A DNA stretch of 64,000 nt from an uncultured bacterium (lineage in GTDB: Bacteria > Patescibacteriota > Minisyncoccia > Phycocordibacterales > UBA2100). Positions within the stretch are counted from its first letter, which is position 1. The number at the start of each line of letters is the position of its first letter. The notes under the pieces are model-generated. The model made no database searches and was not told where the DNA came from. It worked only from the letters and a program-made list of their open reading frames with translations. Shown here piece by piece: positions 23,166 through 63,277 of the stretch. Position numbers and translations under genes: made by a program. The stretch is taken from assembly GCA_903858755.1 (NCBI GenBank), contig CAIOKC010000032.1, positions 29,930-93,929 on the forward strand, given 5' to 3'.

Positions 23166-23250
23166 CGGAGGGGGTGAGATTCGAACTCACGGTGGGTTGC
23201 CCCACTCTTGTTTTCAAGACAAGCGCGTTAGACCACTCTGCCACCCCTCC
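23166..23250 (-). tRNA. tRNA-Ser (anticodon TGA), type II
   Basis: ggaggggtggcagagtggtctaacgcgcttgtctTGAaaacaagagtggggcaacccaccgtgagttcgaatctcaccccctccg. Confidence 0.85.
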
Positions 23251-23329
23251 AAACCACCGTTGTACCACGGTGCGCCCGATGTACACAGCCCGCACACCGA
23301 GCTCACTGCCCCACGGTACAATGACCCAT

Positions 23330-23770
23330 ATGAAAAACCCTTCGACAGGCTCAGGGCGGACACGAGGATTTACCCTTATCGAATTACTCGTCGTCATCGC
23401 GATCATCGGCATTCTCGCTTCGATCGTCCTTGCCTCACTCGCAAGCTCTCAATCGAAAGCCCGCGACGCGCGACGCATGGAAGACGTGAATTCTCTTCAG
23501 AAAGCATTTGCTCTCTACCTCGCGACCTCGGGCACCTATCCTATCTCCGTCTCGACGACGACGCTAAACGGCGGCGGCGGCGACACGATCTCTGCAGTGC
23601 TTGTCGCGAGCGAAAATATCCCGACTGCCATCAAAGACCCGCAATCGCCCGTGTACGACTACACCTACAGCTCCAATTCGACGGGCAACACCTACATGAT
23701 CGGCTTCTGCCTCGAGACCGACAACATACGCAACTACAGCGCGGGATGCAGCAACTACGTCAGACCCTGA
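23330..23770 (+). CDS. Type IV pilin (prepilin with class III signal peptide)
   Basis: MKNPSTGSGRTRGFTLIELLVVIAIIGILASIVLASL...: G|FTLIE prepilin peptidase site and hydrophobic alpha1 helix. An alternative ATG lies at 23321. Confidence 0.85.
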   Translation: MKNPSTGSGRTRGFTLIELLVVIAIIGILASIVLASLASSQSKARDARRMEDVNSLQKAFALYLATSGTYPISVSTTTLNGGGGDTISAVLVASENIPTAIKDPQSPVYDYTYSSNSTGNTYMIGFCLETDNIRNYSAGCSNYVRP

Positions 23771-36032: not shown

Positions 36033-37727
36033 GTGGCGACACAATTCAACGAAAAAAAGCAGGAGGAGCGCCTTGAAGAGCTCCGCGCGCGCGAAGAAGA
36101 GCAGCTCGCCGAGATGCTCTCACACAAATACGGAGTCGAGTACGCCGACCTGACCTCGAAATCCATCGAGACCGACGCGCTGCGCCTCATCGACGAAAAG
36201 GTCGCGCGCGCGACCGAGATCGCGGCATTCCGCAAACAAAATAAATTGATCTTCATCGCGATGCGCGCGCCGGAGCGAGCCGATGCGCTGCAAGCGATCA
36301 AAGACGTGGAGAGTCTCGGCTACCAGACGAGGCGGTTCATCGTCTCGAAGGCATCGCTCGATCATGCGTGGGACCGCTACCACGATCTCTCGTACGCGAC
36401 GGAGACCGAGGCCGGCATCCTCACGCTCTCCAACGAAGTCATCCAACGCATGATCGAAGAGCTTAAGACCCTGCAAGACGTGCAAGCGGAGATCGCGACG
36501 CACGCCGGCTCGAAAGACGTGCATCGCATCTCGCGCGTACTCGAGGTCATCATGGGCAGCGCGCTCTCGCTCGGCGCGTCCGATATCCACCTCGAGCCGG
36601 AAGACGCGGGGGTCCGCATGCGCTACCGACTCGACGGCGTCTTGGTGGAAGTGACTATGTTCGATGCGCCCACCTACGCGCTCGTCTCCTCGCGCATCAA
36701 GCTGCTCTCAGGGCTGAAGCTCAACATAAAAAGCGCGGCGCAAGACGGTCGATTCTCTATCGTCGTACACCAGAAAGAGATCGAGATACGCACCTCGGTC
36801 TTGCCGGGCGCGTATGCGGAGACGATCGTGATGCGCGTCCTCGACCCGACGACGATCGCGCTCCCGATGGAAGCTCTCGGCTTCGATAAGTACCTGATGG
36901 ACATCTTCACGCGCGAGATTTCGAAGCCAAACGGCATGATCCTGAATACCGGACCGACCGGAAGCGGTAAGACCACGACCTTGTACGCCTTTTTGCGCCA
37001 GGTGCACAACCCGGGAATCAAGATCGTGACGATTGAAGACCCGATCGAATACCACTTGCCCGGCATCGTGCAGACGCAAGTGTCGAAAGACTACTCCTTC
37101 GCGCTCGGACTGCGCTCGACACTCCGCCAAGACCCCGACGTGATCATGGTCGGTGAGATCCGCGATGCCGAAGTGGCGGCGACCGCCGTGCATGCCTCGC
37201 TCACCGGCCACCTCGTCTTCTCCACGCTTCACACCAACGATGCCGCGGGCACCTTCCCCCGCCTTATCGACATGGGGGTAAACGCCGACATTCTCGGCGC
37301 CGCGGTCACCGTCGCGATGGCGCAGCGCCTGGTGCGGCGGCTCTGCCCCGTCTGCCGCGAGGCGAAACCGATCGGTGCCGCAGAGCGCGCGCTGATGGAG
37401 CCGCTTTTGAAAAACATCCCACATGCGGACGAACTCCCCGCGAATCGCGAGACGATGTGGACGCCGAAAGGGTGCGAGAAATGCGGCGGGCTCGGATACA
37501 AGGGGCGAATCGCCGTCGTCGAGGCGGTGCTTATGGATCAAGAGATCGAAGAGTGCGTGCGGCACTCATCGAGCGAGCGCGATATCTGGAAAGCGGCGAA
37601 GCATCAGCAGATCCGCCGCATGGCGCAAGACGGGGCGGTAAAAATATTGCAGGGTGTAACCTCGCTCGACGAACTCTCGCGCGTCGTCGACCTGCACGAC
37701 GAGGTGATGCTCGCGGGTATCGCGTGA
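36033..37727 (+). CDS. pilB: Type IV pilus assembly ATPase PilB / GspE family
   Basis: Walker A LNTGPTGSGKTTTLYAFL, Asp box, Walker B and His box (VGEIRD...TGHLVFSTLHTNDA), and a C4 zinc motif (CPVCRE...CEKCGG). Confidence 0.9.
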   Translation: MATQFNEKKQEERLEELRAREEEQLAEMLSHKYGVEYADLTSKSIETDALRLIDEKVARATEIAAFRKQNKLIFIAMRAPERADALQAIKDVESLGYQTRRFIVSKASLDHAWDRYHDLSYATETEAGILTLSNEVIQRMIEELKTLQDVQAEIATHAGSKDVHRISRVLEVIMGSALSLGASDIHLEPEDAGVRMRYRLDGVLVEVTMFDAPTYALVSSRIKLLSGLKLNIKSAAQDGRFSIVVHQKEIEIRTSVLPGAYAETIVMRVLDPTTIALPMEALGFDKYLMDIFTREISKPNGMILNTGPTGSGKTTTLYAFLRQVHNPGIKIVTIEDPIEYHLPGIVQTQVSKDYSFALGLRSTLRQDPDVIMVGEIRDAEVAATAVHASLTGHLVFSTLHTNDAAGTFPRLIDMGVNADILGAAVTVAMAQRLVRRLCPVCREAKPIGAAERALMEPLLKNIPHADELPANRETMWTPKGCEKCGGLGYKGRIAVVEAVLMDQEIEECVRHSSSERDIWKAAKHQQIRRMAQDGAVKILQGVTSLDELSRVVDLHDEVMLAGIA

Positions 37728-48955: not shown

Positions 48956-49426
48956 ATGGCAGCGGTTGAAACCATCCTCACGGAGCTTCTCGACGCGCTC
49001 GGGGTCTCGTACTCCGGTATTGAAAAGAGCGAGATTGCGGGTCAGGAGATATACGCGATCCGTACCGACGATGCGCGGACGCTCATCGGAGCGCACGGTG
49101 ATACGGTCCATGCGCTCGACATGCTCGCGAAGAAAATATACGAAAAACGGAATCCCGCCGAAGGAGGAGAGGGTGAACGAACGCCGATGTTTCTCGTCGA
49201 CGTCAACGACTACCGAAGCAAGCAGATAAAAGATTTGCAGACCAAGGCGCTCATGATGGCGGAGCGTTCGCGCTCGTTCCAGTACGATGTCGAGCTCTCC
49301 CCCATGAGCTCCTACGAGCGCCTCATTATTCACACCACATTGCAGGGTGCGCCGCACATCAAGACGGAATCTCAGGGAGAAGGTCGAAACAGGCGGGTCG
49401 TCATCAAATACTCTGCCGACGCTTAG
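48956..49426 (+). CDS. jag: Jag/KhpB RNA-binding protein (KH + R3H)
   Basis: 156 aa, KH-like N-terminal region and C-terminal R3H (ERLIIHTTLQGAPHIKTESQGEGRNRRVVI). Confidence 0.8.
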   Translation: MAAVETILTELLDALGVSYSGIEKSEIAGQEIYAIRTDDARTLIGAHGDTVHALDMLAKKIYEKRNPAEGGEGERTPMFLVDVNDYRSKQIKDLQTKALMMAERSRSFQYDVELSPMSSYERLIIHTTLQGAPHIKTESQGEGRNRRVVIKYSADA

Positions 49427-49965
49427 GCTCCGCCGTTGAACAGGGATTCGGTCGGGCTTTCGGGCAGTCCCTGATCGTTGAAACCCGGCACGGGCGAGCC
49501 TGAGGGACCGGAGTTATTTATTTGTTGCGATTGCTGCTGCGCGGGCAGCGGCTTGATTCTCTTGAGCGCGTCGAGCGTAAGGATGCCCGGATTGATCTGG
49601 TAGAGGATGAGGTAAATGGCAAGAAGGAGAAGTATGCCGAGCGTCACGTCGCCGATGATCTCTTTCGCTTCGCCCTTGTGGCTCCACATGTCCGCCTGCC
49701 CCATGTAGAGGTATCCTGCATAGGCGAGCCGTATGACCGCGCCGATCGCGCCGATCGCGATCGCGAATTTGAACAGACCATTCACGAAATTCGACAGGTC
49801 GGTCGAAGCGTACAGGTTGCCCAGTTTCGAGGACGCAGGCGTGTCTGCGAGCGGTACGAACGCCTGGGACATGACCAATCGTCCTCGCGCGCGCATCCAC
49901 TTTGAAAGTGTCGGTATGATTTTATTCATGTATGCGTAGTACCCAGAGAGACCTGTCGCTTGCAT
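49423..49965 (-). CDS. Two-TM membrane protein, candidate VirB2/TrbC-like T4SS pilin
   Basis: 180 aa: leader, two long hydrophobic helices (LFKFAIAIGAIGAVIRLAYAGYLYM; IIGDVTLGILLLLAIYLILYQI), Gln/Pro-rich tail. First gene of the T4SS-like block. Confidence 0.35.
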   Translation of the reverse strand: MQATGLSGYYAYMNKIIPTLSKWMRARGRLVMSQAFVPLADTPASSKLGNLYASTDLSNFVNGLFKFAIAIGAIGAVIRLAYAGYLYMGQADMWSHKGEAKEIIGDVTLGILLLLAIYLILYQINPGILTLDALKRIKPLPAQQQSQQINNSGPSGSPVPGFNDQGLPESPTESLFNGGA

Positions 49966-51214
49966 TGACGAACGCGATTGCTGAGCCGTTTGGCGCGATG
50001 GCGGGGTCCTTCACGTCGAGGGACGTGTTTGAACCGGGCGTATAGAGCGCGCGCGCGGTGTTTGCCGACACGTCGATTTCCCACCACGCGTCTGCGGTGT
50101 GCAGCTCCCCGCGGTACCAACGATCGAGGTAGCCGCCTGCGGGAAGCGTTTGCGGTACCGCGCAGTACAGTATGTTTGCGCGCGCGGGTGCCCACACGCA
50201 TTTCTCGGCCACCGTGCGGACAGGAAGCTGCACGGACGATGTCTCGCCCGTGCGAGCGAACAAGCGGACGCCGTCTTCTCCGGATGTGCTATATGCGAGC
50301 GCGGTCGATGACGCGCGCGGTAGTACCACGAGCCCGGGAAGTCCGGGCGCGATTTTCGTGATCCCGCCGCTCCTCACTTCGTACGCGTGTCCCAGGGTGC
50401 GGTCCGCAGGCTCTTCAAGAAAGATAATGCGACCATCGGAGAGCCAGTCGACGCGCCACGATCCGATGCCGGAGAGAAATACGCGCTTCTGCCCGCCTCC
50501 GCGCGCGCCCGCGCGTATGCCGACAAATTTTCCCGCGTCTTGCGCCAGATACAGCACCTCGTCTCCCGCAGGGGAAAGTGCAATACGGAGGATGTTTTTC
50601 CCGAGAGCGACGCCCGACAGAGAGCGCAGCGCGTCGGAGGTTGTCGTCGAAAGAGTCCCGGAGAAGGTTGTGATAGCGTCGTTCCCATCGAGTCCGCGCA
50701 TCAGTATCGTTCCGTTTTTCCCGAACAACGCTTCGTAGGTCTTGGGCATCAGCGTGTTTGAAAGGCGCTCGACCGCCTCCGACGCCGGATCCGCCGAGAA
50801 GACGTATCCGGTCGACCGTTCCGCGAAGTAGAGGCGCTCGCCCCGCTCTTCGGCGACAAACCCGAAACCGGCGACCGGCGTCTGGGTAACCCGCCAGAGA
50901 CCTTGCGTCGAGCGGGTCTCCCCTTCCGCGTCTCCTTGTCCGAAGACGGTAGAGATGGCGTTTTGGTACGCATTGCCGAGTGCCCCGACAAAGGTCGGCG
51001 CGTCCGCGCCGAATCCGCGCGCACTGTCCCGGTCGGCAGTCGCCTGTGTTTCTCCGCGGATGAAGAAGTACCATCCCGAAAGCGCGCCGAGCACGATGAC
51101 GATGATCGCAGCGAGTGTGAATCCGATGAGAGAGTGTACGCGCATACTCATTCTGCTGAAGGGTTGCCGAATAATCCTCCGGAGCCGCCGCCCGAAGACA
51201 GGGTAATCCCCCAT
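49922..51214 (-). CDS. Membrane-anchored periplasmic protein (beta-propeller/TolB-like, putative)
   Basis: 430 aa, N-terminal TM, repeated hydrophobic/Gly-rich beta-strand segments. Confidence 0.4.
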   Translation of the reverse strand: MGDYPVFGRRLRRIIRQPFSRMSMRVHSLIGFTLAAIIVIVLGALSGWYFFIRGETQATADRDSARGFGADAPTFVGALGNAYQNAISTVFGQGDAEGETRSTQGLWRVTQTPVAGFGFVAEERGERLYFAERSTGYVFSADPASEAVERLSNTLMPKTYEALFGKNGTILMRGLDGNDAITTFSGTLSTTTSDALRSLSGVALGKNILRIALSPAGDEVLYLAQDAGKFVGIRAGARGGGQKRVFLSGIGSWRVDWLSDGRIIFLEEPADRTLGHAYEVRSGGITKIAPGLPGLVVLPRASSTALAYSTSGEDGVRLFARTGETSSVQLPVRTVAEKCVWAPARANILYCAVPQTLPAGGYLDRWYRGELHTADAWWEIDVSANTARALYTPGSNTSLDVKDPAIAPNGSAIAFVNASDRSLWVLRIHE

Positions 51215-51741
51215 GATTCGGAAGCTTCGAAGAATACGTTCGCGAGATGAGAGATGTCGAGAGTAAGAAGCCCGATGCCGTTTGAGTTTTGCGCCCCGAT
51301 CGTGATCGCGTACGGACGCTCGTCGTCAGCGGGGATCGCTTTGCCGTTGACGATCCAAGACCACTGCAGCAGCCGGTCGGAGAGGCGCGCGACGGGGGCG
51401 AAATACGGTATCGCCGCGAACGTCATTTCAGAATCAGGTATCAGGGATTGCGCGCCGAGCGCTCGGTGGTACGTCACGCCGAAAAGCGGGTGATCCTGGT
51501 AGAGGTCGAGCGTCGGCTCTGCGGAAGGGATTTGGACGGACGCGCTCCCCGCGAGCTGCCGGTCGAGCGTCGCCGCCTCGACCGATACGGTATCGCTCCC
51601 GAAAAGGACCGGCGCCGGAATGCTTACGCTTGATTTCCCGCGCCCCGACACGCTTCCGAGTATTTGGTCGTTGCGCCTCCATGTGAAGACGATGTCGGAG
51701 ATCGCCGCCTCCTTCCCTCCTTCGTAGACGAAGTGCGGCAC
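51148..51741 (-). CDS. Hypothetical protein; in frame with, and possibly continuous with, 51769-52200 across a single TAA
   Basis: GTG-initiated ORF in the same frame as the upstream ORF; a VPxFYEG motif is repeated on both sides of the stop. Confidence 0.35.
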   Translation of the reverse strand: MPHFVYEGGKEAAISDIVFTWRRNDQILGSVSGRGKSSVSIPAPVLFGSDTVSVEAATLDRQLAGSASVQIPSAEPTLDLYQDHPLFGVTYHRALGAQSLIPDSEMTFAAIPYFAPVARLSDRLLQWSWIVNGKAIPADDERPYAITIGAQNSNGIGLLTLDISHLANVFFEASESWGITLSSGGGSGGLFGNPSAE

Positions 51742-51768
51742 TGCTTCGAGGCGGAGAGTCGAGCCCGC

Positions 51769-52200
51769 TTAAGGAAGCGCGCGACCTTCGTAAAACGGCG
51801 GGACGTACGAGTCGGCATCAAACAAAAGGTCGATCTCTGTCGGGGCTATGGTGAGTGCCGCAAACAATGCTGCGTCGTCGGGAGCGACGACGTCGACCGA
51901 GACGTCGATCGCAGAGCCGAGCGCGCCCGCGACAAGCTCGGCGGATGTCGCGCCTACTCCCTGCGCGAAGACCTTGCCGTTCACTCGCCACGTGAGCGTG
52001 CTGTCCGAGAGGTCGTAGGCACTACTTCGTGCTTCGAGGCGCACAGTGTCGTGCGGAGCCGGGTACGCGGGCGAAAGAGTGATGGAGACGGCATCGCCTA
52101 TGCCCGGAAGCGCGAATTGCGCGTACGCATGCGGAGCGAAGAGCAGGATCGCGCTTGCGAGTGCGCCGAGAGCGTACGCATGTGCCCGCGTCGCGCTCAT
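51769..52200 (-). CDS. Secreted hypothetical protein (signal peptide), upstream half of a possible split gene
   Basis: MSATRAHAYALGALASAILLFAPHAYAQ signal; ends ...PPFYEGRALP-TAA. Confidence 0.4.
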   Translation of the reverse strand: MSATRAHAYALGALASAILLFAPHAYAQFALPGIGDAVSITLSPAYPAPHDTVRLEARSSAYDLSDSTLTWRVNGKVFAQGVGATSAELVAGALGSAIDVSVDVVAPDDAALFAALTIAPTEIDLLFDADSYVPPFYEGRALP

Positions 52201-54140
52201 ACGGTCGGCATGCGCGGGATGCCGGATGCTTGCGGCGCCGTGTCTGCTCCCGGAGCGGCGTGCGCTCCGCCTGAGAGCGGCGCCGATTGTGCGGGCGCGG
52301 CGCTCGCAAGCGAAGATGGAGCGATGTCTTGCGCCTGCGCGAGCTCCTGCTTCGCTTTCTTGATAGCGAGAATCTGCGACGGGTCAGACGTGATGATCTG
52401 ATCCTCGGTGTACGAAGCAATGACCTTGATCGCGACGTGCTTCAATCCCGCGAAGAAAATACCCTCCCCCACGTCTGACTCGAGCAAGAGGTACTTTTCT
52501 TCGTCGGAGAGCTTGAATGTCTGCTGCACGAGATCGACGGAAGTCGGCGACTGGCGCAAAAGGAGCTGGATCGAGGAGTTGGTGATCATGGGGATGCCAT
52601 ACGGCGAATTGAGGAAGTCGGAGACGTCTTGCGTGATGGTCGAGATGCCGAGGTAGTATTTGCGACCGCGTTTTGCGATTGAGAACAAAAAGGAGGCAGT
52701 GTCTTGGCTTCGCATCATCCACCACGCCTCGTCGATCACGAGAAGACGCTTGCGGAGCTCTTTCCGCACGGTGTTCCAGATGTGGTGGGTGATGATGTAC
52801 ATCGCGACCGGCTTTAGGTCGTCCTCCATATCGCGCACGGAGAAGACGATAAGCTTCTTGTTCATGTCGACGTTGGTCGGTCGGTTCATGAATCCAGACC
52901 ACGTGCCCTTGGTGTATTTCGAGAGACGCTGCACGAGAGACTCGCTCCCCTCCATGCCGGAGAGCACGAGCTCGAAGTCGGAAAGGAGCGGCGGCTCCAC
53001 CTGCGCAAAGTTGGCATCCGCGGTGATGTCTTTGAGAGCGTACGTCTCGGTGATCGCCTTGTCGATGATCGCGTCCTCTTCGGGCGTGAGACCGCCGAGC
53101 ATGATGCGGAAGAGCCCCACGAGGGTAATGATGTTGTTGCGCAGTATGTCGGACGGATTCTCGTCTTCGCGCGGGATGGGGAGGTCGAACGGATTGATGT
53201 GGTTCTCCGACGAGAGCGATATGTTGAAGTAGCGCCCGCCCACCGTCTCGGCGAGGTACTCGTATTCGCGCTCGGGGTCGATCACGATGACTTCGGTGTC
53301 AAACATGAGCGAACGGAGGATTTCGAGTTTGGTCGTGTAGGATTTCCCCGCGCCAGATTTGGCGAAGGTCACCGAATTGTAGTTCTCGAGCGAAAAGCGG
53401 TCGAAGAGGATGAGGGAAGAGTTGTGGCGGTTGATGCCGTAGAGAATGCCGCGGTCGCTCGTAAGGTCGAACGAAATGAACGGGAATATGGAAGAGAGCG
53501 GCGCAGAGTTGAGTTTCGTGTGGACATTGAGCTCGTCGGTCGCAAGCGGCAGGACCGAGCGGAATCCCTGTTCCTGCTGGAAAAGCGCGGGACGAATGTA
53601 GACAAGGCGTGATTCGAGGATCGAGCGCACCTCGCTCTCGACCTTGTCGATCTCCTCGCGGGTGCTGCCGTAGATGGTCATGTAGAGACCCACTTCGAAT
53701 ATGCGCTCCTGCGCTTGCTGGAGAGAGTCGCGGAGCTGCTCGAGATCGGAGTAGGCGGTATCGAGCATCGGGTCGCGCACCATCCCCTTCGACTCGCGCA
53801 TGGATATCTGGCTCTGGACCTCCGCGACCTTCTTCTGAAATTTGCGCAGCATCTCGTTGGTGTCCATGGGGTGGACGAAGATCGAGATATCGATGACCTT
53901 ATCCATGTTGATGATGGGGGCGAACCACCCCGTGGTGAGGAAGCGCGGGTAGGAGATGACGAAGAACGTGCGGGCGATCTTTTCGCCCAGATCGAGTTCG
54001 CGCGAGCTGACGCGGAGCGCGTGCGGTGCGATAACGTCTTGCAAGTCAAGGACGCCGGACTTGTAGATTTCTTCCGGCAATACCGGGAGGACGTTCGGGC
54101 TCTCCGCGTCTTTTTTCTTGAACAGGTCGATAAGTGTCAT
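52197..54140 (-). CDS. VirB4/TrbE/CagE-family type IV secretion ATPase
   Basis: 647 aa; Walker A (VTFAKSGAGKSYTT), Walker B (LLVIDEAWWMM), conserved VirB4 C-terminal motifs. Confidence 0.8.
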   Translation of the reverse strand: MTLIDLFKKKDAESPNVLPVLPEEIYKSGVLDLQDVIAPHALRVSSRELDLGEKIARTFFVISYPRFLTTGWFAPIINMDKVIDISIFVHPMDTNEMLRKFQKKVAEVQSQISMRESKGMVRDPMLDTAYSDLEQLRDSLQQAQERIFEVGLYMTIYGSTREEIDKVESEVRSILESRLVYIRPALFQQEQGFRSVLPLATDELNVHTKLNSAPLSSIFPFISFDLTSDRGILYGINRHNSSLILFDRFSLENYNSVTFAKSGAGKSYTTKLEILRSLMFDTEVIVIDPEREYEYLAETVGGRYFNISLSSENHINPFDLPIPREDENPSDILRNNIITLVGLFRIMLGGLTPEEDAIIDKAITETYALKDITADANFAQVEPPLLSDFELVLSGMEGSESLVQRLSKYTKGTWSGFMNRPTNVDMNKKLIVFSVRDMEDDLKPVAMYIITHHIWNTVRKELRKRLLVIDEAWWMMRSQDTASFLFSIAKRGRKYYLGISTITQDVSDFLNSPYGIPMITNSSIQLLLRQSPTSVDLVQQTFKLSDEEKYLLLESDVGEGIFFAGLKHVAIKVIASYTEDQIITSDPSQILAIKKAKQELAQAQDIAPSSLASAAPAQSAPLSGGAHAAPGADTAPQASGIPRMPTV

Positions 54141-54145
54141 AGCGC

Positions 54146-54814
54146 CTATTGGGTAAGCCCCGCGATCGGCATGGGCTTCCCCTCTTCGCCCGGGTTGAAC
54201 ATTTTGTAGAGAAGCTCGATCGCCTCTTCGGTCCCCAGCTGCACGGTGCGCACGCCGGTCCGGACCAGACCCTGCTGCACGATCGAGATGCGCTGTTCAA
54301 GCTGCGTCGCCTGCTCCTCGAACGAGCGATTCTTCTCTTCGGTGTTTTGTTTCTTTTTTCCGAATGGAATAAGAGAGCCGATGCCGCTTTTTGAAACCGC
54401 AATGACCGGAGAATACGGCACGACGACAAAGAAGTTTTTCGTCATGATGTTTGCCGCTTCCGTAAAGCTCTTGATGAATTCGATGTACTCGCGGATCTGG
54501 ATGCGCATGAGGTCGTCGAGCTGATTCTTGTATGCTGCTTCGAGGGTCGCGACGTACGGTCGGATATCGAGCATGCGCGATTGCACGAATATCTGCGCGG
54601 AAAAATCGAGTGAGTTGAGGAAATTCTGGAATTGCACGATGAATGCGGTCTGTTCGTCTTCTGACTTGAGGGCGAAATTGATGGAGGAGGCGAGGAGAAT
54701 CGCGCGCAGGCTTCCGTCTTTGAGGACGACGATTCCGTCGCGCACCTCGGATACCGGCAGGAATTCCTGCGTGCTCTTCGCCGATGTGCGCGGATTTGCG
54801 GTCTGGGTCGGCAT
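54146..54814 (-). CDS. Hypothetical soluble protein of the T4SS-like operon
   Basis: 222 aa, no TM, no recognisable family; between the PrgI-like and VirB4 genes. Confidence 0.35.
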   Translation of the reverse strand: MPTQTANPRTSAKSTQEFLPVSEVRDGIVVLKDGSLRAILLASSINFALKSEDEQTAFIVQFQNFLNSLDFSAQIFVQSRMLDIRPYVATLEAAYKNQLDDLMRIQIREYIEFIKSFTEAANIMTKNFFVVVPYSPVIAVSKSGIGSLIPFGKKKQNTEEKNRSFEEQATQLEQRISIVQQGLVRTGVRTVQLGTEEAIELLYKMFNPGEEGKPMPIAGLTQ

Positions 54815-54816
54815 AA

Positions 54817-55320
54817 TTATTGGACGAGCGCCTGCCGGGCGGTCCGCACGGGAGCGACGAGATCCTCAGCCGTTCGTACGGCGTGGCGGTCCTCGTCGTT
54901 CGCGACCCCGGCAGAGATCCGCTCCTTGATGTCGAGACTCCACGCAAGCTCATGGAGCTTGCTTTCGGACAACTTCGGGACGTATACCTGGGCGGCGGAA
55001 TCCGGCTTGGCTGCGGCTTTCTTGGCAGACTGCTTTCGGGCGTTGTTCCAGAGGTAGAGCTTGCCGCGTATATAGAAGAAAAACGCGTTCTCAAGCCCGA
55101 GGATGAAGGGGCGTCCGTTGAATCGAAAGAACGCAAGCGCCGCCGCAAGACCTCCGACGACGAGGATGAGGGGTCCCGAGAGGTAGACGGGGAATATGCG
55201 CCATAGAATGTACGCCGCGCCGGCTCCCCCGCCGAGGTAGATGAACTGTTTGAAGGTCAGCGGTCCGAATATTTTATCCTCGACCTCTATGAACTGTGGT
55301 ACTTGGAACTGCATACGCAA
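54817..55320 (-). CDS. PrgI-family (VirB3-like) membrane protein
   Basis: VPQFIEVEDKIFGPLTFKQFIYLGGGAGAAYILW, then a second TM: the PrgI family hallmark. Confidence 0.6.
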   Translation of the reverse strand: MRMQFQVPQFIEVEDKIFGPLTFKQFIYLGGGAGAAYILWRIFPVYLSGPLILVVGGLAAALAFFRFNGRPFILGLENAFFFYIRGKLYLWNNARKQSAKKAAAKPDSAAQVYVPKLSESKLHELAWSLDIKERISAGVANDEDRHAVRTAEDLVAPVRTARQALVQ

Positions 55321-56073
55321 TTAAAGTATAGCAACGTTTTCCTGCTCATCCGGCGTACGTGCGTGGAATATGTCGAACAATGTGTCGACCGAGGCGATTT
55401 CGGCGGGAGGAATGGGCAGCGCATCTTTCGAAAGGAGTTTCGACTCTTGCCGCGTGCCGCTGCAGTAGTCGTTGAAGCTGGAATACTTGTATGTCTGTAT
55501 GAAGGTTGCCGCGCGCTCTTTCTCCGCGATGCCGTGTTCCCGCCAGCCGGGCTGCAAGAGGTCTAACGGATTCAGGTGTATATATGAGAACAGCCAGCGC
55601 ATGTACTCATCCGAATCTGCGTGCTTTGATCGGAACGGTCGAGCGAACAGCGGTCCGCTCCGCTGGTGTTTTGTGTTGAAGTACATCGAGTACGCGGTCA
55701 TGAGCTTGAGCATGAACTTTGATATGCCTCCCTCGGTGCTCTCACGCAGGGCAAGGTGAATATGATTGGGCATCAGCGCATACCCCATGATTGCCGTGAG
55801 ACGCCCCTCTTCCGGTTTGGACTCGCCTTCTAGCCACTTTATCAAGGGTTCCCCTTGATATTTCTTCAGAGTGTTCGCGACATGGACGGGCTTCTTGCTG
55901 TTGCACAGGAGGAGCAGGAGCATGAATCGGTCATAGTCGCGATTTTCTAGGAATATCGTCCTTTTTTCGACTCCGCGCGTGTACACGTGGTAGTTCTCGC
56001 CCTCTACAAAGGGAACCTTCCTCTCCATGAGGTCATCATAGCGTATTATCAAGGGGACCCCTTGATAATCCAC
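55321..56073 (-). CDS. IS200/RAYT-like HUH Y1 single-strand DNA nuclease/transposase-family protein
   Basis: YHVYTRGVEKRTIFLENRDYDRFMLLL; HUH motif LMPNHIHLAL; YSMYFNTKH; GPLFARPFRSKHADSDEYMRWLFSYIHLNPL, which aligns to TnpA-REP/RAYT (QPRFWEHAIRN...DYIYINPVKHG). No flanking intergenic DNA. Confidence 0.65.
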   Translation of the reverse strand: MDYQGVPLIIRYDDLMERKVPFVEGENYHVYTRGVEKRTIFLENRDYDRFMLLLLLCNSKKPVHVANTLKKYQGEPLIKWLEGESKPEEGRLTAIMGYALMPNHIHLALRESTEGGISKFMLKLMTAYSMYFNTKHQRSGPLFARPFRSKHADSDEYMRWLFSYIHLNPLDLLQPGWREHGIAEKERAATFIQTYKYSSFNDYCSGTRQESKLLSKDALPIPPAEIASVDTLFDIFHARTPDEQENVAIL

Positions 56074-56082
56074 AAGACGAGT

Positions 56083-56631
56083 TTACTGCGGCGATTCGCG
56101 GTACGGATCGTCGTGCACTGATGCGCGCGCCGCCGACGTCTCGCCCGATTTGTATCCTTCGGATACCGGCGCGCGCGCGACCTTTTCGGAAGGGGGCGCC
56201 GCCGGCGGCGTTGCGGGGGCGACGGGCGCTGGCTTCGCAGTATTCGAGAGTATCGCGCCCCGCGCCGCCTCGACGCTACTCACCTTCTCTGCTTGCGCCT
56301 CAGGGTGATCGAGCTCTCGTTCAAGCTCTTGCCGGATTGGTTCGAATACGAGTCTTGATATGTCCGCCGTGAGCGCTTTCGCGGTCTCCGTGTCGACTTT
56401 TACTTCACCCTCAACATTTTTTTGAAGGTCCTCGGAATTCTCAACGCCGAGAAGCGTAAGCATGACCTGGTTCTCCAGAGTCTCCCACTGGTCGAGGTGT
56501 AATTTGTGAACATTCGCAAGTTCTCGCAAGTGCTGCGCCACATCAGCAGACGTTATCGCGTCCTGCACGACTTTTGGCAGCAACTTGAAACGCTCTTGTA
56601 TCAACTGTCCGTACTCGTTGTCGTTGTCCAT
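56083..56631 (-). CDS. Hypothetical protein (T4SS-like operon)
   Basis: 182 aa, acidic N-terminal helical region, Pro/Ala-rich C-terminus. Confidence 0.35.
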   Translation of the reverse strand: MDNDNEYGQLIQERFKLLPKVVQDAITSADVAQHLRELANVHKLHLDQWETLENQVMLTLLGVENSEDLQKNVEGEVKVDTETAKALTADISRLVFEPIRQELERELDHPEAQAEKVSSVEAARGAILSNTAKPAPVAPATPPAAPPSEKVARAPVSEGYKSGETSAARASVHDDPYRESPQ

Positions 56632-56634
56632 ACA

Positions 56635-58893
56635 TTAGTGTCCGTGACCTCCGCCTCCGTGCTCATCGTGTCCTCCTCCTGAGGGTGGTGTCGAGGGTGT
56701 GGTCGGAGTTGCTGGTGCAGCTGCTCCATGTCCTCCTCCGCCAGTCTTATCTTTTAGGTAGTCGGCGATTTTCTTCGCCTCTTTTTTCTCGTGGTGCTCC
56801 CCAACTTCTTTTCGTGTGAGCTGTGCCAATCGGTCGTTATCTTTTGTGCTCAATCCTGTGGCGCGGGCGAGCAGATTCGTATACCGCTTGTGTGCGAGGT
56901 GTTCTCCGAGTTCCGCTTCGGATTTGTATTCTTCTTTCAGTTTGCTGCCCATCGCAAAGAACTGCTTGCCTCTCGCGATGGCATTCGCCTTTGCTTCGTC
57001 CTCGATGTTTTTAATAACAGTGTTTGCGCTGCTGAGTTTTTCAGTCGCGCTCTTGATGCGCTCCTCCTGCTTCCTCAAGTTCGTGTCGTGTTCTTTCACT
57101 TTCTTTTCTGCCGCGGTTTTTGCTGCGCTGTCGCCCGCCCGCTCGGCTTGATTGCGCTCAAACTCCGCTTGTTCGCGGGCCTTCCGCGTCGCGTCGTATT
57201 CTTTTTGTGCGGCGTTTTGGTCGGTCTTGTGAGTATCGGCGGCCTGCGTCGCTTCAGCGTGTCGTCCACCCAGCCCTGCGTTGTTCGAGAGCTCTTTTTT
57301 GATCGCCTGTGCGGTGATTTCACCTTGTTTTTTCCCATCCACGTGCAACATATCCGCTTTCTCCGCGAATTTTTCCGCGCGCCTCTTGAGAGAACCTTCG
57401 AAGCCTTTTACCTCTTTGCCTGCGAGTGTCTTGAGATCCATCCCTGCTGTTTTCGCGATGGCGCCTCCGAGGAGTGGAGTACGAGCGAGGTTCATGTCGG
57501 ATTTTGCTACACTTCTGAATCCTCTCGAACCGAACGAATACAGGGACTGACGAATACTGCCGTCCGGCGCATTTTGCGCGCGCCTCTTCAGTGCCTCACT
57601 TGCGGCAGAACTTCCGCGACCGATGGTCTGTCTGCCGAGTATTCCTGCAAAGCGTGAACCGAGCCCGAGTGCGACGGCAGGGGCAAGCGCCGCTATATTG
57701 AATCCAGAAATTTTCCCGGCGAAGCTGCTCGCGAGCCGGAAAGAGAAGAAGAGCGTGCCCACGCCGATGATGTAGAGGAGGATGGTGGTCCAGCTATCAC
57801 CCGAGAGCTGCTGCCGCGGGTCGCTCACGACGCTGCCGATCGGGGTCTGTGCGACCGCGCCTGCCGCACTCACGATCGCGAGCGATATCGAGAGGAGGAG
57901 CATGAGGAGCGGCGCGAAGATCGCGGCGTTGATGAGCGTCTTCCACCACTCCTTCCACCCGTAGGTGCTATTGGCGAGATTCGGGAGGAGGTATGTCGCA
58001 AACGCGAGCGCCGAAGTGAGCATGAGTACGATGAGGAGCACTCCGCGCGCGGCGATCAAGAAACATCCGTAGAGAATGACGCCAGCGGTCGCGAGAAGCA
58101 TCGCGCCTCCTACAAATCCGAAAAAGAACGCTTGATAGCCGCTCCCCGTCTCTTTGAGAACCTTCTTCGTCGCCTCCCCGGAGTCGTTCCAGATGCTCGT
58201 TATCTTCATCGGAGTGAGAAACGCCTGCGCGATGTCAAATGTCTCAGGCTGCGCCGCCATCTGCTTATAGATGGCGAACGCGGCGAAATTGGAGGCGTCG
58301 ATGATCATTTTCGTAAAGAGCAGGCTGAAATTGATCAAGACTGCGATGATGAGCACGTTTGCGATCAGCTTCTTCTGCCCGAACTCTTTCAGACCGAGGA
58401 TGATCGAGACCGCGATGAACGTGAAGATGCCGATGATGAGAATGTTGGAAAAATCTCTGAAGATGCTCCATGCCTCGGCGATCGCCGGAATGATGCGGAG
58501 TGTATCGAGCGAGTTCCTGAATCCGACAACGATGTGAGATACGAGATTGTCGAAGAGCGTCCCCGCAAGCCGTAGAATCATGGCGCCGAACGCGAGGAAC
58601 CACGAGCCGAGCCAGCTCAGGAAGACGTTGAAACATCCGTTGATGGAAAAGTAGAGTGGATTGATCGAGCACTCCGTGTCGTATGTGTTGACTTTGGGCT
58701 TTGCCGAAGCGGTGCTTGGCGCGGCGCTGCCTGCTCCTGTGGTCGCGGTCGTCTGCGCGAGCGCACTCGGCGCTTTGAGCGATATCGTGTCTGCAGTCAA
58801 CGAGAGCGGCAGCGCCGCGCCCGCCACGCACGTGCTCGCGAGGATGAGAGCGCTCACTAGGTACTGTACAGGTGCATGCGTGCGGCGGGTCAT
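56635..58893 (-). CDS. Polytopic membrane protein with long C-terminal coiled-coil/His-Gly tail; VirB6/TrbL-like candidate
   Basis: 752 aa: signal, about 8 TM helices, then a Lys/Glu-rich coiled coil and GGGGHG tail. Confidence 0.4.
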   Translation of the reverse strand: MTRRTHAPVQYLVSALILASTCVAGAALPLSLTADTISLKAPSALAQTTATTGAGSAAPSTASAKPKVNTYDTECSINPLYFSINGCFNVFLSWLGSWFLAFGAMILRLAGTLFDNLVSHIVVGFRNSLDTLRIIPAIAEAWSIFRDFSNILIIGIFTFIAVSIILGLKEFGQKKLIANVLIIAVLINFSLLFTKMIIDASNFAAFAIYKQMAAQPETFDIAQAFLTPMKITSIWNDSGEATKKVLKETGSGYQAFFFGFVGGAMLLATAGVILYGCFLIAARGVLLIVLMLTSALAFATYLLPNLANSTYGWKEWWKTLINAAIFAPLLMLLLSISLAIVSAAGAVAQTPIGSVVSDPRQQLSGDSWTTILLYIIGVGTLFFSFRLASSFAGKISGFNIAALAPAVALGLGSRFAGILGRQTIGRGSSAASEALKRRAQNAPDGSIRQSLYSFGSRGFRSVAKSDMNLARTPLLGGAIAKTAGMDLKTLAGKEVKGFEGSLKRRAEKFAEKADMLHVDGKKQGEITAQAIKKELSNNAGLGGRHAEATQAADTHKTDQNAAQKEYDATRKAREQAEFERNQAERAGDSAAKTAAEKKVKEHDTNLRKQEERIKSATEKLSSANTVIKNIEDEAKANAIARGKQFFAMGSKLKEEYKSEAELGEHLAHKRYTNLLARATGLSTKDNDRLAQLTRKEVGEHHEKKEAKKIADYLKDKTGGGGHGAAAPATPTTPSTPPSGGGHDEHGGGGHGH

Positions 58894-58894
58894 A

Positions 58895-61015
58895 CTATTT
58901 GATTCTCCACTTCTCCGTCCATGATGCGATCACGCTCTTATCATTCGTATTGCACCATGCGCCTGGGGAATCCGCCCACGATTTCACCGTATCTTCCACG
59001 AGCGTCGCCATCGCGGCGTCGACTTTCGTTTTCTGTTCCACTTTGTTGGTGAGGTCGGGCTTGAGGTGGAGCGCTCGGTCGACCACGAGCGAATCGAGCT
59101 GCTGGAGCGCGAGGCGCTGCGCATTTAAGGATGCGGTATTCGTGATGCTGGTGACGAGATTGGTGATGAGCCGGAGCGCAGTCTGCGATGTCTTGATGTC
59201 GTTGAGCGTTTCCGTCGCGAGCGGCGTTATCTGCGGATCGATGATCGCCTGGGAGTATGCGGTCGATGTCGCCACCTTGAGCTTCGAGCCGACGGGGCAC
59301 GTGATCGTCGTCGGGTTTTGCGTGATCGTGCATGAAGCGAGCTGCGCGGTTTGGATGAAATTGCCGACCGTACAGCTTGCGCCGCCGTTGCCATCGTCGG
59401 TGCAATTGCTGGTGAACGAGATGCAGGTATTGTCGGCGGCGACCGGCGTCGCGCACGTCTTTTGGATGATGGTATTCCAGCACTGCCGCTCGGCGCCCCG
59501 AAGGTCGTTGATCGCTTTCGTGAGCGTTGCGGCGATCTTGTTGACGGTCTCGAGATAGTTTGCCTCCACCTGCCGCGCTTCGTTGAGAATGCTGAGACCT
59601 GTGTTGACGGCGGCGTTCCTCACTCCCTGCGCGGATTCTTTCGCGATCTGGTCAAGGTACGACGTCTGACCGCCGGAAGATCGGGCAAGACCCGTAAGAC
59701 CCTGTGAGTCGGAGAGTACCTGCGTCGTCACGCCTCCGTAGAGCGCGCTGATCATTTGCCCGATATCGTTGGCGCTTTCAAGCTGGCGCACCGGGCTGTC
59801 GAAGAGCGTCTGGAACGATTGCTGGATCGTGATACTCGGCGTGCGGGTCTTGCGTGCAAGCGGATCTGAAGCGCCGTCGGTGCCCGCGTAGTATCCGTTG
59901 CCCCATGACCACTGATTGCGCTGGTACTCGAGCGCTTGCGCGATTTTCCTTCCGACGTAATCCTCGGACAGCAAATACGCGCCCCTAAACGTGCACGCCG
60001 GATTCTCGAGGGCGGTGAGCGCGTCCCAGATCGACTTGTCGGGCGTTCCGTTCCTGACGCTGGCGAGATCGCCTTCGTACGGGCACTTGAGCGCGTTTTC
60101 GGGCGCGCGCGTCTTTGCCTGGTAGCGCTGGGCGAGCGTGCGTATGACGGATGATTTCAGGGTTGGATCGAGAGAATCAAACGCTCCGCTTTCGAGAAGC
60201 GAAAGAAATTGCGGATCCGCGACGTACGTGAGCTCCTCTTGTCCCTGATTTACGACGAATTGCGGATTGCCATCGCGCCCCGTCATGACGCCCGTGTATC
60301 CTTTCTTCAAGAAGGCAGACATCGCCGCCTCGCGCTCGCGATTGATGACTTCGCGCAAGATGCACTCTTTGTATACGAGAACGCCGGTATTGAGCTCGAC
60401 CGCGGCGTCTGCGACCGGTACGTATACGCCGCCGATTGCGCCGAGCGACCCCACACTCATCGCATACGCGCCGTTTTGGTTGCAGTCGAAGATTCCCTGC
60501 CGCTTGAATTGGTAGGGCTCGGAAGAGAGCGGGGGCTGCGTGCTTCCGGTGCCGCTCGTGCCTGCTCCGCCAGTACCCGCGCCGCTGCTTGCACCTGCTC
60601 CGCCAGTACTCGTGCCTCCTCCGCTTGCGCTTCCCGCCCCTGTGGCCGCGGAAGAAAGCGTGGTGGTATTCGCGCTATTTGATTCCGCGGAGACATTTCC
60701 CGCGGCGTCGTATGCGCGAATGCGGTAGGTGTAGCTCGTCGCCGGCTGAAGCCCTGTGTTCTCGAACGAGGTGGTCGTCGATGTCGCCACTTGCGCGAAA
60801 TTCGTCGAAGCGCCGGGCGCGCGGTAGATTTTGTAGCCGACCACGCCGACTTCGTCGGTCGATACGCCCCACGAAAGGTCGATTTCCGTCGATAAGACGC
60901 CGACGATGGTGAGATGTGCGGGTGCGCTCGGCGCGGTCGCATCGGTCGTTTGCGCGCGCGCCGCGAGCGGCACCAATGCCGTGAGTACGAGGAGCGAAGA
61001 GAGAAGTTGCGTCAT
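58895..61015 (-). CDS. Secreted surface protein with N-terminal fibronectin type III domain
   Basis: Signal peptide; FN3 (PSAPAHLTIVGVLSTEIDLSWGVSTDEVGVVGYKIYR...TYRIRAYDAAGNVS); Gly/Ser/Thr linker; large C-terminal domain. Confidence 0.5.
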   Translation of the reverse strand: MTQLLSSLLVLTALVPLAARAQTTDATAPSAPAHLTIVGVLSTEIDLSWGVSTDEVGVVGYKIYRAPGASTNFAQVATSTTTSFENTGLQPATSYTYRIRAYDAAGNVSAESNSANTTTLSSAATGAGSASGGGTSTGGAGASSGAGTGGAGTSGTGSTQPPLSSEPYQFKRQGIFDCNQNGAYAMSVGSLGAIGGVYVPVADAAVELNTGVLVYKECILREVINREREAAMSAFLKKGYTGVMTGRDGNPQFVVNQGQEELTYVADPQFLSLLESGAFDSLDPTLKSSVIRTLAQRYQAKTRAPENALKCPYEGDLASVRNGTPDKSIWDALTALENPACTFRGAYLLSEDYVGRKIAQALEYQRNQWSWGNGYYAGTDGASDPLARKTRTPSITIQQSFQTLFDSPVRQLESANDIGQMISALYGGVTTQVLSDSQGLTGLARSSGGQTSYLDQIAKESAQGVRNAAVNTGLSILNEARQVEANYLETVNKIAATLTKAINDLRGAERQCWNTIIQKTCATPVAADNTCISFTSNCTDDGNGGASCTVGNFIQTAQLASCTITQNPTTITCPVGSKLKVATSTAYSQAIIDPQITPLATETLNDIKTSQTALRLITNLVTSITNTASLNAQRLALQQLDSLVVDRALHLKPDLTNKVEQKTKVDAAMATLVEDTVKSWADSPGAWCNTNDKSVIASWTEKWRIK

Positions 61016-61860
61016 GGCGATTTGCTCTTGTAGTACGCGGTCAGCGCGTTGAACGATGCGAGAATGTCGGTCTCAGCTTCATTATAACTGCGCAGCAGCG
61101 CGACGGTCGCAAACGGATCGTCCGCATGCGCACTCATCGAGTGTAGCGTCGCCGCAAATTTCCCCATCGCGTTCAGTATGGCGACGTGGTACGGTACCGC
61201 ATCTCTTGGCGCGATGACTGAGGCGGTCGCCGATTGCGCGTCGTGGTAGCGCTTCGCGATGTCGTCCAGTTGGGTGAGGTACGCCGCGTCTTTCGTCTGC
61301 ACATAGAGCGCGAATACCTCATACTCCGGTCGAGTGTTGTCGAGAAGCGGAGCGAGGCTTTCTCGGAGATCGCTCCGGTAGGCGAGCATGCGCGCGTATG
61401 AAGTATCTGGGTCGGTGCGGATGTCGGAGGTCTGGTACGCGAGATACTCGACGGGCGCTTTGAGCGCAGACGCGAAATCTTCGGCGGCTTTCTGCGCATC
61501 CTGCGCCGTGTACGAACCATCCTCTTGCATGCCGACGTAGGTTTCGAGGAGCTGATTGATGACGGCTGGTCCGATAAGGCTCACGACGTCGGTCGATGTC
61601 GCTTCCGTCTCTGATCCGAAAGAGGGCGCGTCTTCTTGCGAAGTTGATTCCCCCGCATACGTCGCGACGAACGACGATACCGACTGCTTCTCATGCGCGA
61701 CGCGCCGGATTTCCCAGCCGACGACCGCGAGGAGCGCCGCCACGGAGATCGCGGCGGTGATGACGATAGGAGCAAATCCGTATTCGCGTGCGGGAGACGA
61801 ACTTGCGTCTTTGCAATACCACAAAAGCCCTACGCCCGAACTTGCGCGCATGTTCTTCAC
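61012..61860 (-). CDS. Membrane-anchored hypothetical protein
   Basis: 282 aa, one N-terminal TM, periplasmic domain. Confidence 0.4.
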   Translation of the reverse strand: MKNMRASSGVGLLWYCKDASSSPAREYGFAPIVITAAISVAALLAVVGWEIRRVAHEKQSVSSFVATYAGESTSQEDAPSFGSETEATSTDVVSLIGPAVINQLLETYVGMQEDGSYTAQDAQKAAEDFASALKAPVEYLAYQTSDIRTDPDTSYARMLAYRSDLRESLAPLLDNTRPEYEVFALYVQTKDAAYLTQLDDIAKRYHDAQSATASVIAPRDAVPYHVAILNAMGKFAATLHSMSAHADDPFATVALLRSYNEAETDILASFNALTAYYKSKSP

Positions 61861-61929
61861 TCGTACAGTATACCGCGCGCGTATGCGCGCATACGTCGGA
61901 AAAACGCGGATATGTGTCTTGCAGTGAAT

Positions 61930-62904
61930 CTACAAGCTGATCGGCTTGAACGTGAAGGCGCTGCCGGGGTCGTCGGCTGTGAACGAGACGCCGTATGCTC
62001 CGAATGTGTCGACGAGCGCGACGTAATGCTTGCCGAATGCGTCTGCGGAGGTGTTGTAGACGCCGATCGCCGCGAGGAAATCGCTGTCACTTTCTGCTTT
62101 TGGCACGAGGGCGAGATTCGCGCCGATCTCCATGTAGCTCTCCGCGAGCGCTTTGTTGAGCGCTATCGCAGCTGCGGGGACCGGCTGTATGAGGAGGAGA
62201 CCGCGACCTGTCTCCCAGAGCGCGCGGCTAAGCTGGACGACCGCCGCTCGTTTTGTCTCGTCGTTCCTGTCTTCCAGCCAGTGCTTAAGTACCTGGGACT
62301 GGTCGCGATGCGACTCTTCGAATGATTGTATATATGAGCCTGCTTCGTTGCCGTAGTCGTAGAGTTCTTGCTGGATCTTGCTCCGCTTTTTCACCTGAGT
62401 GGTCGTGGATATGAAGCCCGAGGGTATGAACGAAAACGCTTCTTCAATCGCCGCTCCTGCGCCCGCACTCGGGGTGCGCTGGGAGGCGCCCGAGAGCTCG
62501 GCGATAAACGCATTGAAGTCGAATTCCTCTCCGGTCGGGGTGTACGAATCTCCGCTCGCCGGGGCGGGAGGAATGTATGAGTATGGAAGTGATGTTTGCG
62601 CCGGGGCGGTCATGCCGGGGTCGCGCCCCTCGCCGCCGCTGTATGCGGGGTTGAGCAGGTTGATATTGATGCCGCCCCACGCGGCACCGGAACCTGATGG
62701 TCTGACCGCAGAGCGGGTCGAGACAAAGAGCGCGCCGAGGAGGACGATCGCGCACACGACCGCAAGCACGCTCGTGTAGGGGTGCGCGCGGAACCAATCC
62801 GCTTTCGTGCGCTGCGATACCGCGCCTGGCGGCGGGGTGTGCTCGGGCGTCGGCGCGATCTCGTTGAAGTCGTGTCCCGATATCTTGAATTGGTCCATCA
62901 TCAA
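61930..62904 (-). CDS. Membrane-anchored hypothetical protein
   Basis: 324 aa, N-terminal TM (VLAVVCAIVLLGALFV), Gly/Pro-rich linker, C-terminal globular domain. Confidence 0.4.
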   Translation of the reverse strand: MMMDQFKISGHDFNEIAPTPEHTPPPGAVSQRTKADWFRAHPYTSVLAVVCAIVLLGALFVSTRSAVRPSGSGAAWGGININLLNPAYSGGEGRDPGMTAPAQTSLPYSYIPPAPASGDSYTPTGEEFDFNAFIAELSGASQRTPSAGAGAAIEEAFSFIPSGFISTTTQVKKRSKIQQELYDYGNEAGSYIQSFEESHRDQSQVLKHWLEDRNDETKRAAVVQLSRALWETGRGLLLIQPVPAAAIALNKALAESYMEIGANLALVPKAESDSDFLAAIGVYNTSADAFGKHYVALVDTFGAYGVSFTADDPGSAFTFKPISL

Positions 62905-62953: not shown

Positions 62954-63277
62954 ATGCCGATACGCGCCATAGGATTTCTCGCCGGCATCGCGGCGCTCGC
63001 TGCTCCGCTGACCGCGCTCGCTTTTCCGTTCGGCGGTCAGGCGAGCATCGTCGTCCCCTGCTACAATCAGGCGATCTACGCCAATCTCGGTCCTCCGCGC
63101 GGCGGACCGTACGTATGGACTCCCTCGACGCGCACGTACCAATTCGGCGCGCCGACGCACGCAGGACAGTGGCTCTTGGGTCTCGCCGGCGCGCCGTACT
63201 TTTGCGTCGTTTCCAGACAGCCAGTCATCGTCTGGGCAGGTACGTATATAACAATGATGGGCTCAAGTCAGCAATAA
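62954..63277 (+). CDS. Small secreted protein
   Basis: MPIRAIGFLAGIAALAAPLTALAFP... signal peptide; about 108 aa. Confidence 0.35.
   Translation: MPIRAIGFLAGIAALAAPLTALAFPFGGQASIVVPCYNQAIYANLGPPRGGPYVWTPSTRTYQFGAPTHAGQWLLGLAGAPYFCVVSRQPVIVWAGTYITMMGSSQQ

Follow-up and report, generated by a model that had tools for sequence, protein, structure and literature searches.

The window analysed here, a stretch of 64,000 nucleotides from an uncultured bacterium of the Patescibacteriota (GTDB lineage Minisyncoccia; Phycocordibacterales; UBA2100; contig CAIOKC010000032.1 of assembly GCA_903858755.1, positions 29,930 to 93,929), carries at positions 49423-62904 a tight minus-strand operon for a type IV secretion system (T4SS), beside jag, yidC, dnaA and dnaN. 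The operon encodes a complete inner-membrane core of split VirB4, VirB3 and a VirB6-like protein, together with a pilin and co-inherited extracytoplasmic proteins; no DNA-processing or substrate-receptor part was found near it. The operon is fixed in the chromosome, inherited vertically and under very strong purifying selection; it is not an integrative and conjugative element (ICE). We consider it likely that the system derives by vertical inheritance from monoderm (MPF_FATA) conjugation machinery, gained a VirB2-like pilin and acts as a host-contact machine. The chromosomal, origin-proximal T4SS of Patescibacteria (the candidate phyla radiation, CPR) has already been described, and the block is not a new system. 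The initial annotation of this DNA favoured host interaction or DNA acquisition over ordinary conjugation, an interpretation that our tests support and that matches published descriptions; the novelty that it implied is not supported, as a 2025 publication had already reported this system in the same setting (PMC12102498).

Genomic position and layout

Minus-strand open reading frames (ORFs) run without interruption between jag (48956-49426, plus strand) and ksgA (from 63263, minus strand). The dnaA and dnaN genes lie on the far side of jag and yidC from the block, and the cumulative GC skew reaches its minimum at 44-46 kb of the window. The block therefore adjoins the replication origin, and the ORF calls and the GC skew bear out the initial placement of a T4SS-like block next to an oriC-proximal yidC-jag pair. 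The count of about 14 genes given with that placement has to be revised, although the minus-strand run itself stands: with gene coordinates corrected from gene calls on identical contigs, the block comprises 12 genes and one insertion, one gene having been read as two. Most neighbouring genes of the operon overlap or are separated by 0-9 nt; the widest gaps are those before the pilin gene (~50 nt) and after g13, the first gene of the block (~80 nt). Seven of the proteins are lineage-specific and have no family assignment. A scan for promoters and terminators gave nothing above shuffled expectation. Upstream, the only genes carried by short contigs are ksgA and another of at least 433 aa.

All 13.5 kb of the operon lie on the minus strand, to the right of the origin inferred from the skew (minimum at ~44-48 kb), and transcription would therefore run head-on to replication. 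Related loci keep this orientation with respect to yidC/jag and dnaA.

A split VirB4 and the inner-membrane core

The ATPase body of the system (52197-54140, minus strand, as for all genes of the block; 647 aa) is a VirB4 of the monoderm (MPF_FATA/CD1110) type. It matches the Pfam families P-loop_TraG (1.7e-23) and AAA_10, and the NCBIfam model conju_CD1110 (2.4e-108; 363 bits against a curated cut-off of 325) over model positions 180-733 of 752. Matches to solved structures include the C-terminal domain of Thermoanaerobacter VirB4 (PDB 4AG5; 5.4e-42) and TrwK of R388 (1.6e-7), and Walker A (SGAGKS) and Walker B (LLVIDEAW) motifs are visible in the translation.

The adjacent TrsD-like gene (54146-54814; 222 aa) encodes the equivalent of the N-terminal segment of a full-length VirB4. 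Its product matches NCBIfam TrsD (1.5e-6), VirB4_plasma (5.6e-9; model positions 98-233 of 894), CD1110 (11-118 of 752) and TIGR00929 (2-179 of 792), every one of these matches being below the curated cut-off. On four different full-length VirB4 models, its alignments take in the first 120-230 positions, and the 647-aa ATPase picks up the same models at approximately position 180-290 and continues to their end, a pattern repeated on CD1110, TIGR00929 and VirB4_plasma. Because the two neighbouring genes tile one complete VirB4, the ATPase of the block is predicted from these alignments to be split into a TrsD-like N-terminal piece and a 647-aa body.

To follow these genes across lineages, we scanned one genome per GTDB species, which yielded 80 loci with VirB4 73-95% identical to the window copy, and searched these loci with every window protein (tblastn). 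The PrgI/VirB3-like small membrane protein (54817-55320; 167 aa) matches PF12666 (1.2e-10; 42.3 bits against a cut-off of 27), occurs in 77 loci and is always encoded directly upstream of the TrsD-like gene, which itself is found in 81 loci at a median identity of 62%. The VirB4 and PrgI assignments made in the initial annotation consequently hold in profile searches, and the Gram-positive-type core that it recognized agrees with published accounts (PMC12102498, PMC10633639, PMC12857230).

The VirB6-like protein (56635-58893; 752 aa) is an extended polytopic protein with six hydrophobic segments followed by a ~330-aa hydrophilic, coiled-coil tail that ends in His/Gly, a topology compatible with VirB6. 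Ten of its 39 syntenic orthologues match PF04610 (TrbL/VirB6; best 6.5e-7), in line with the original suggestion of a VirB6/TrbL-like protein. The order VirB6-VirB3-VirB4 is one that we take to be the same as prgH-prgI-prgJ of pCF10. The VirB2-like T4SS pilin (49423-49872; 149 aa) has two hydrophobic helices, as proposed for a VirB2/TrbC-like candidate, and all 23 of its orthologues match PF18895 (T4SS_pilin; best 5.9e-10), six of them also matching TrbC/VirB2. A profile search found no second copy of the pilin in the window. The TrsD, PrgI and pilin genes are all within five genes of virB4.

Vertical inheritance and the question of conjugation

Gene order in the loci is conserved as ksgA-g13-g12-g11-VirB6-g9-PrgI-TrsD-VirB4-IgRepeat-propeller-pilin, with jag/yidC on the opposite strand followed by dnaA-dnaN. 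This order recurs in representatives of ~80 GTDB species from the Kaiser-, Nomura-, Taylor-, Campbell-, Adler- and Wolfebacteria (Kaiserbacteria-like Paceibacteria). In more distant lineages the pilin and propeller genes are swapped, and the outer genes g11-g13 fall below detection. Among the 40 loci that contain all markers, median identity is highest for VirB4 (78%), followed by the TrsD-like protein (63%), DnaA (56%), PrgI (52%), KsgA (52%), YidC (42%) and DnaN (41%). VirB4 is more conserved than DnaA in all 40 of these loci, and the TrsD-like protein in 26 of the 40. VirB4 is also ~90% identical in hundreds of metagenome-assembled genomes (MAGs) of Kaiserbacteria and Paceibacterota; the best 120 of 8000 matches are 88-100% identical, and their named sources are all Kaiserbacteria, Paceibacterota, Parcubacteria or unclassified bacterial MAGs.

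These data bear on whether the block could be a conjugative element, either an ICE or an integrated plasmid, with DNA export through ordinary conjugation of the Gram-positive type, an origin that we rejected and regard as highly improbable. The VirB4, TrsD, PrgI and VirB6 families do derive from conjugative elements of Firmicutes, and a gene for an HUH nuclease lies inside the operon. Against this, the order from ksgA to jag/yidC/dnaA is the same in ~80 species, and the nearest plasmid VirB4s, all from the monoderm Firmicutes or Actinobacteria, are 29-36% identical, so that no plasmid copy exceeds 36%. The GC content (0.56-0.63, compared with 0.54-0.61 in the rest of the window) was counted as within range, and the published VirB4 tree follows class taxonomy (PMC12102498). 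In window positions 1-44800, Pfam scans of 30 ORFs (200 aa or longer) recovered no VirD4/TraG, VirB11, relaxase or integrase, and across the window as a whole the scanned ORFs of that length matched no family of VirD4/TcpA coupling proteins, VirB11, relaxases or integrases. The initial report that neither VirD4 nor VirB11 is visible is upheld by these scans, and its concern that the block might belong to an integrated element with a relaxase and an integrase is answered by the synteny and by the lack of either gene among the ORFs scanned. Every related species examined has the locus at the same site; att (attachment-site) repeats around the block were not searched for.

The nuclease-like gene in the operon (55321-56073; 250-aa ORF) encodes a Y1 protein of the IS200-like/REP-type HUH group. 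It matches PF01797 above the cut-off (1.3e-5) and NCBIfam REP_Tyr_transpos (2.3e-7), and its HUH (NHIHL) and YIHLNP motifs are intact. Relaxases are likewise HUH enzymes, so we tested whether the gene travels with the T4SS. It is present at this slot in three of the 80 genome loci, in one of them with an internal stop, and of 80 metagenome loci with a homologue, four adjoin T4SS genes and 76 lie away from them. On these counts a hidden relaxase was rejected as a core part of the system, and the gene's distribution argues against conjugation. It abuts its neighbours (0 and 9 nt), leaving no room for the ends of an insertion sequence (IS), and orthologues in that slot reach only 53-57% identity. 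The gene resembles a resident REP-type, non-core insertion rather than an active IS. Loci in which the gene was noted are L013, L014, L020, L084, L121, L122 and L127, and the family occurs mostly elsewhere in CPR genomes.

Co-inherited partner proteins

The three genes upstream of the VirB6-like gene encode extracytoplasmic proteins. The initial annotation described several single-transmembrane (TM) periplasmic proteins in the block; single TM segments are present, but 'periplasmic' is not the appropriate term for a monoderm. The products of g13 (61930-62901; 323 aa) and g12 (61012-61851; 279 aa) are paralogous, membrane-anchored proteins (hhalign probability 97%, E 2e-11), predicted to be four-helix bundles. 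The structural model of g12 (pLDDT, the predicted local distance difference test, 83.7) consists of a membrane anchor and an extracytoplasmic four-helix bundle; the helical-domain protein g13 has one TM segment and no relative in PDB or Pfam.

The secreted g11 protein (58895-61015; 706 aa) is the FN3-containing surface protein recognized at the outset, with a PF00041 match of 6.3e-10. Its model (pLDDT 81.5) comprises a signal peptide, the FN3 domain, a disordered linker and a ~530-aa, mostly helical and Cys-containing core, which includes a 68-residue helix and a small beta insertion and has no match among solved structures. Most orthologues lack FN3, and others have Ig-like or F5/8 type C modules instead. 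This variation at the N terminus suggests a conserved core with exchangeable adhesion modules.

Between VirB6 and PrgI, g9 (56083-56631; 182 aa) encodes a cytoplasmic helical protein that has no TM segment and no Pfam, NCBIfam or PDB match, and that occurs at this position in 48 loci. Residues D175, P176, Y177 and E179 are invariant across 37 orthologues. The C-terminal DPYRE follows a disordered Pro-rich linker and resembles a docking peptide.

Downstream of virB4, the propeller protein (49922-51151; 409 aa) has one N-terminal TM segment and a weak match to Pfam Gmad1 (0.0014). It is found in 68 loci. The profile of its orthologues returned 12 TolB chains, each weakly (E 0.01-0.1), and this repeated signal points to an ectodomain that is probably a TolB-like beta-propeller. 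On the other flank of the block, between ksgA and g13, a divergent gene on the plus strand (62954-63277) encodes a small secreted protein of 107 aa that is a possible accessory component. It is also called as a gene on identical contigs, and by tblastn it occurs at about the same position in 25 loci, 34-79% identical (19 of them at 56% or more); L003 is the only one of these in which it is not on the opposite strand. It has no family match.

A stop-codon polymorphism in the Ig-repeat gene

The gene between virB4 and the propeller gene (51148-52200; 350 aa when intact) was initially read as two ORFs (51148-51741 and 51769-52200), which are a single gene split by an in-frame TAA at codon 144 (51769-51771). 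The product carries a signal peptide plus three repeats that contain a conserved Trp, and gave weak Ig, PKD and BiPBP_C matches; it is predicted to be a secreted protein of three Ig/PKD-like beta-sandwich repeats. In ~74 relatives, nearly all have a single ORF of ~320-424 aa at this place, and a few have a longer one. One near-identical contig (L001), with 3 differences from the window in 6,483 positions, has TCA (Ser) in place of the TAA, corresponding to a C-to-A change at 51770; the gene is also intact on a second contig (L002), and a 143-aa gene call on another contig represents the stop allele again. Contigs from several samples share a VirB4 with 100% identity, and three of these have the intact Ser codon. 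Since contigs with identical VirB4 carry either allele, the TAA is a polymorphism within a population, and it looks like a natural nonsense polymorphism in an operon that is thought to be essential.

Decay of the locus in this particular genome would offer another account of the stop codon, and could draw on the second contig with the stop allele, on the non-core Y1 gene in the operon and on a pilin without a hydrophobic leader. We think this unlikely. All other genes are intact and tightly coupled, the Ser codon persists in the same population, the Y1 gene is likewise beside intact neighbours in L013 and L014, and several orthologous pilins also lack a clear leader.

A proposed model for a host-contact machine

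In T4SSs, a VirB4 tethered by VirB3 supplies the energy for extracting pilin and assembling it on the VirB6 platform. By analogy, the split VirB4 of the block, formed by the TrsD-like N-terminal piece and the 647-aa body, would serve as the ATPase and would dock via PrgI/VirB3 onto the extended VirB6 membrane channel. It would drive the extraction of the VirB2-like pilin and its polymerisation into a pilus or a conduit through the cell wall. The wall-spanning and host-contacting part might consist of the Ig-repeat protein, the TolB-like propeller, the two four-helix-bundle anchors and the large helical protein with its exchangeable adhesion modules. From general knowledge of T4SSs we infer a pilus-forming, contact-dependent conduit on the host cell, and the machine would serve contact with that cell rather than conjugative export of the bacterium's own DNA. 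More tentatively, the non-VirB proteins (the Ig-repeat protein, the propeller, the paired anchors, the 530-aa core and the DPYRE protein) could form an undescribed wall-spanning and host-docking module that replaces VirB8, VirB1 and the adhesin, in a machine that would be an essential importer of host material; we offer this as a speculative extension.

ComB and Ced are T4SS-based importers that dispense with the coupling protein and relaxase, and Patescibacteria cells are auxotrophic. Because of these precedents, the auxotrophy and the housekeeping-like conservation of VirB4, we lean slightly towards uptake of host material over export of effectors.

A specific form of uptake, in which the block imports DNA or nucleotides as do Helicobacter ComB or archaeal Ced and so feeds a cell unable to make nucleotides, is a sub-case of the host-contact reading, which leaves the direction open; we judge it possible but less than probable. 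The absence of a coupling protein and a relaxase, as in DNA-importing T4SSs, and the conservation of VirB4 would fit a core feeding role. The idea has been raised in a perspective (PMC11665869), comEC being dispensable and the T4SS essential. The block also gave a weak partial match to CedB (5.2e-9 over ~70 residues), but this is limited to the shared P-loop region. Moreover, the core operon has no recognizable DNA-binding or nuclease component.

Export of effector proteins or toxins into the host bacterium, through a coupling protein encoded elsewhere, is also a minority prospect in our assessment. VirD4-like genes do lie away from virB4 in most Patescibacteria genomes (PMC12102498), and effector delivery has been speculated on by Wang et al. 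(PMC10633639) and in the PNAS perspective (PMC11665869). However, the coupling-protein homologue is not essential in Southlakia, whereas the T4SS is (PMC12102498), and no candidate effector/immunity pair is visible in the operon.

Several observations weigh against a functional host-contact machine of the kind that we favour. VirB8-like (NTF2) and VirB1-like (cell-wall hydrolase) parts are standard in monoderm T4SSs, and neither has a Pfam or NCBIfam match in the block; the g12 model is a four-helix bundle and not an NTF2 fold. The window copies of two core components fall below the Pfam threshold on their own: the VirB6-like protein has no Pfam match, and the pilin scores 0.057 against PF18895. 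The pilin has no obvious hydrophobic leader before its conserved FVPL motif (window 49873-49965, minus strand), while most orthologous pilins have one and a few also lack it. The premature TAA in the Ig-repeat gene may mean that this genome's copy of the machine is impaired. Essentiality has been shown only for a Saccharibacterium, whose cluster differs (six pilins, and hydrolases next to virB4). Finally, a distant VirD4 homologue could possibly serve export, our analysis having covered 64 kb of the genome.

Other genes in the window

The 30 ORFs scanned in window positions 1-44800 encode tRNA synthetases, PolA, RuvB, a MurC-like ligase, PBP1A, type IV pilus proteins and a reverse transcriptase. 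The sole ATPase of the T2SSE family (36033-37727) has an MshEN domain, is of the PilB type and lies among type IV pilus genes. Type IV pilus genes are scattered in the window (18395-19528, 22796-23770 and 36033-37727) and encode PilM, a pilin with an N-methylation motif and the PilB-type ATPase. The reverse transcriptase gene (6129-7118, minus strand; RVT_1, 2.6e-24) has no template/variable repeat pair within 4-16 kb, so it is not obviously part of a diversity-generating retroelement. A 98-bp direct repeat (12259-12356 and 14912-15009; 99% identical) brackets an ORF of 700 aa without a Pfam match (12818-14920, plus strand) and adjoins a tRNA-Leu gene (15069-15155); this arrangement is possibly an insertion with a duplicated target or att site.

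Comparison with known systems

Helicobacter pylori ComB and archaeal Ced are, like the system encoded by the block, VirB4-type ATPase machines that function with neither a coupling protein nor a relaxase. They differ in their other parts, which are the diderm outer-membrane proteins VirB7, VirB9 and VirB10 in ComB and CedA, CedA1 and CedA2 in Ced; beyond the P-loop of the ATPase, the block was not found to share any specific component with them.

With the MPF_FATA conjugative T4SSs of Firmicutes (pCF10, the CD1110 family of Clostridioides difficile CTn, and TrsD/TrsE of pGO1) the block shares a VirB4 above the CD1110 cut-off and the PrgI and TrsD families. Searches of the block did not recover a relaxase, a coupling protein, a VirB1 hydrolase, a VirB8-like protein or a PrgB-type adhesin, and it differs further in its chromosomal and fixed location, in a VirB4 identity of at most 36% and in the presence of a VirB2-like pilin. 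Gram-positive T4SSs are not known to have such a pilin.

The T4SS of Southlakia epibionticum ML1 (SEML1_0006-0019) has the same monoderm-type core with pilins and no coupling protein or relaxase in its cluster, and its low gene numbers suggest that it too is located near the chromosome start. It is the only member with genetic data: transposon sequencing (Tn-seq) showed that the T4SS and pilins are essential for the epibiotic growth of Southlakia on Actinomyces, and that comEC is dispensable (Wang et al. 2023, PMC10633639). This cluster has six divergent pilins, with peptidase and lysozyme genes downstream of virB4, and a later review lists VirB1-, VirB8- and VirD4-like parts; the block has one pilin and no hydrolase, and genes for the Ig-repeat and propeller proteins follow virB4. 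A 2024 perspective calls the function of the T4SS "completely unknown" (PMC11665869), and a 2025 review likewise regards it as unknown (PMC12857230); the roles on which both speculate are the delivery of effectors and uptake by way of a pilus conduit. Patescibacteria, which live attached to other microbes, account for much of bacterial diversity, and theirs is the first T4SS shown to be essential for its bearer. The map of twelve co-inherited genes, with the split VirB4 and several surface proteins without structural assignment, could inform structural or proteomic studies of the way in which these cells draw on their hosts.

The closest counterpart is the T4SS of the Patescibacteria clade in its Paceibacteria arrangement, described in a survey of 3,035 Patescibacteria genomes (Quinonero-Coronel et al. 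2025, PMC12102498). In that survey, Patescibacteria VirB4 forms a monophyletic clade nested in MPF_FATA, TrsD, PrgI/VirB3, VirB6 and VirB2-like pilins adjoin virB4, relaxases are almost absent, and the Paceibacteria locus lies near dnaA, dnaN, ksgA, rnpA and rpmH. The block likewise has a VirB4 with adjacent TrsD-like, PrgI/VirB3, VirB6-like and VirB2-like pilin components, and shares the lack of a relaxase among the ORFs scanned, the chromosomal location and the vertical inheritance within the class. To that description our analysis adds fold-level notes on the neighbouring proteins, the explicit tiling of TrsD and VirB4 and the comparison of identities with DnaA. Nothing essential differs: the block is an instance of this system and adds no new kind, and it provides a clean, well-conserved Paceibacteria example.

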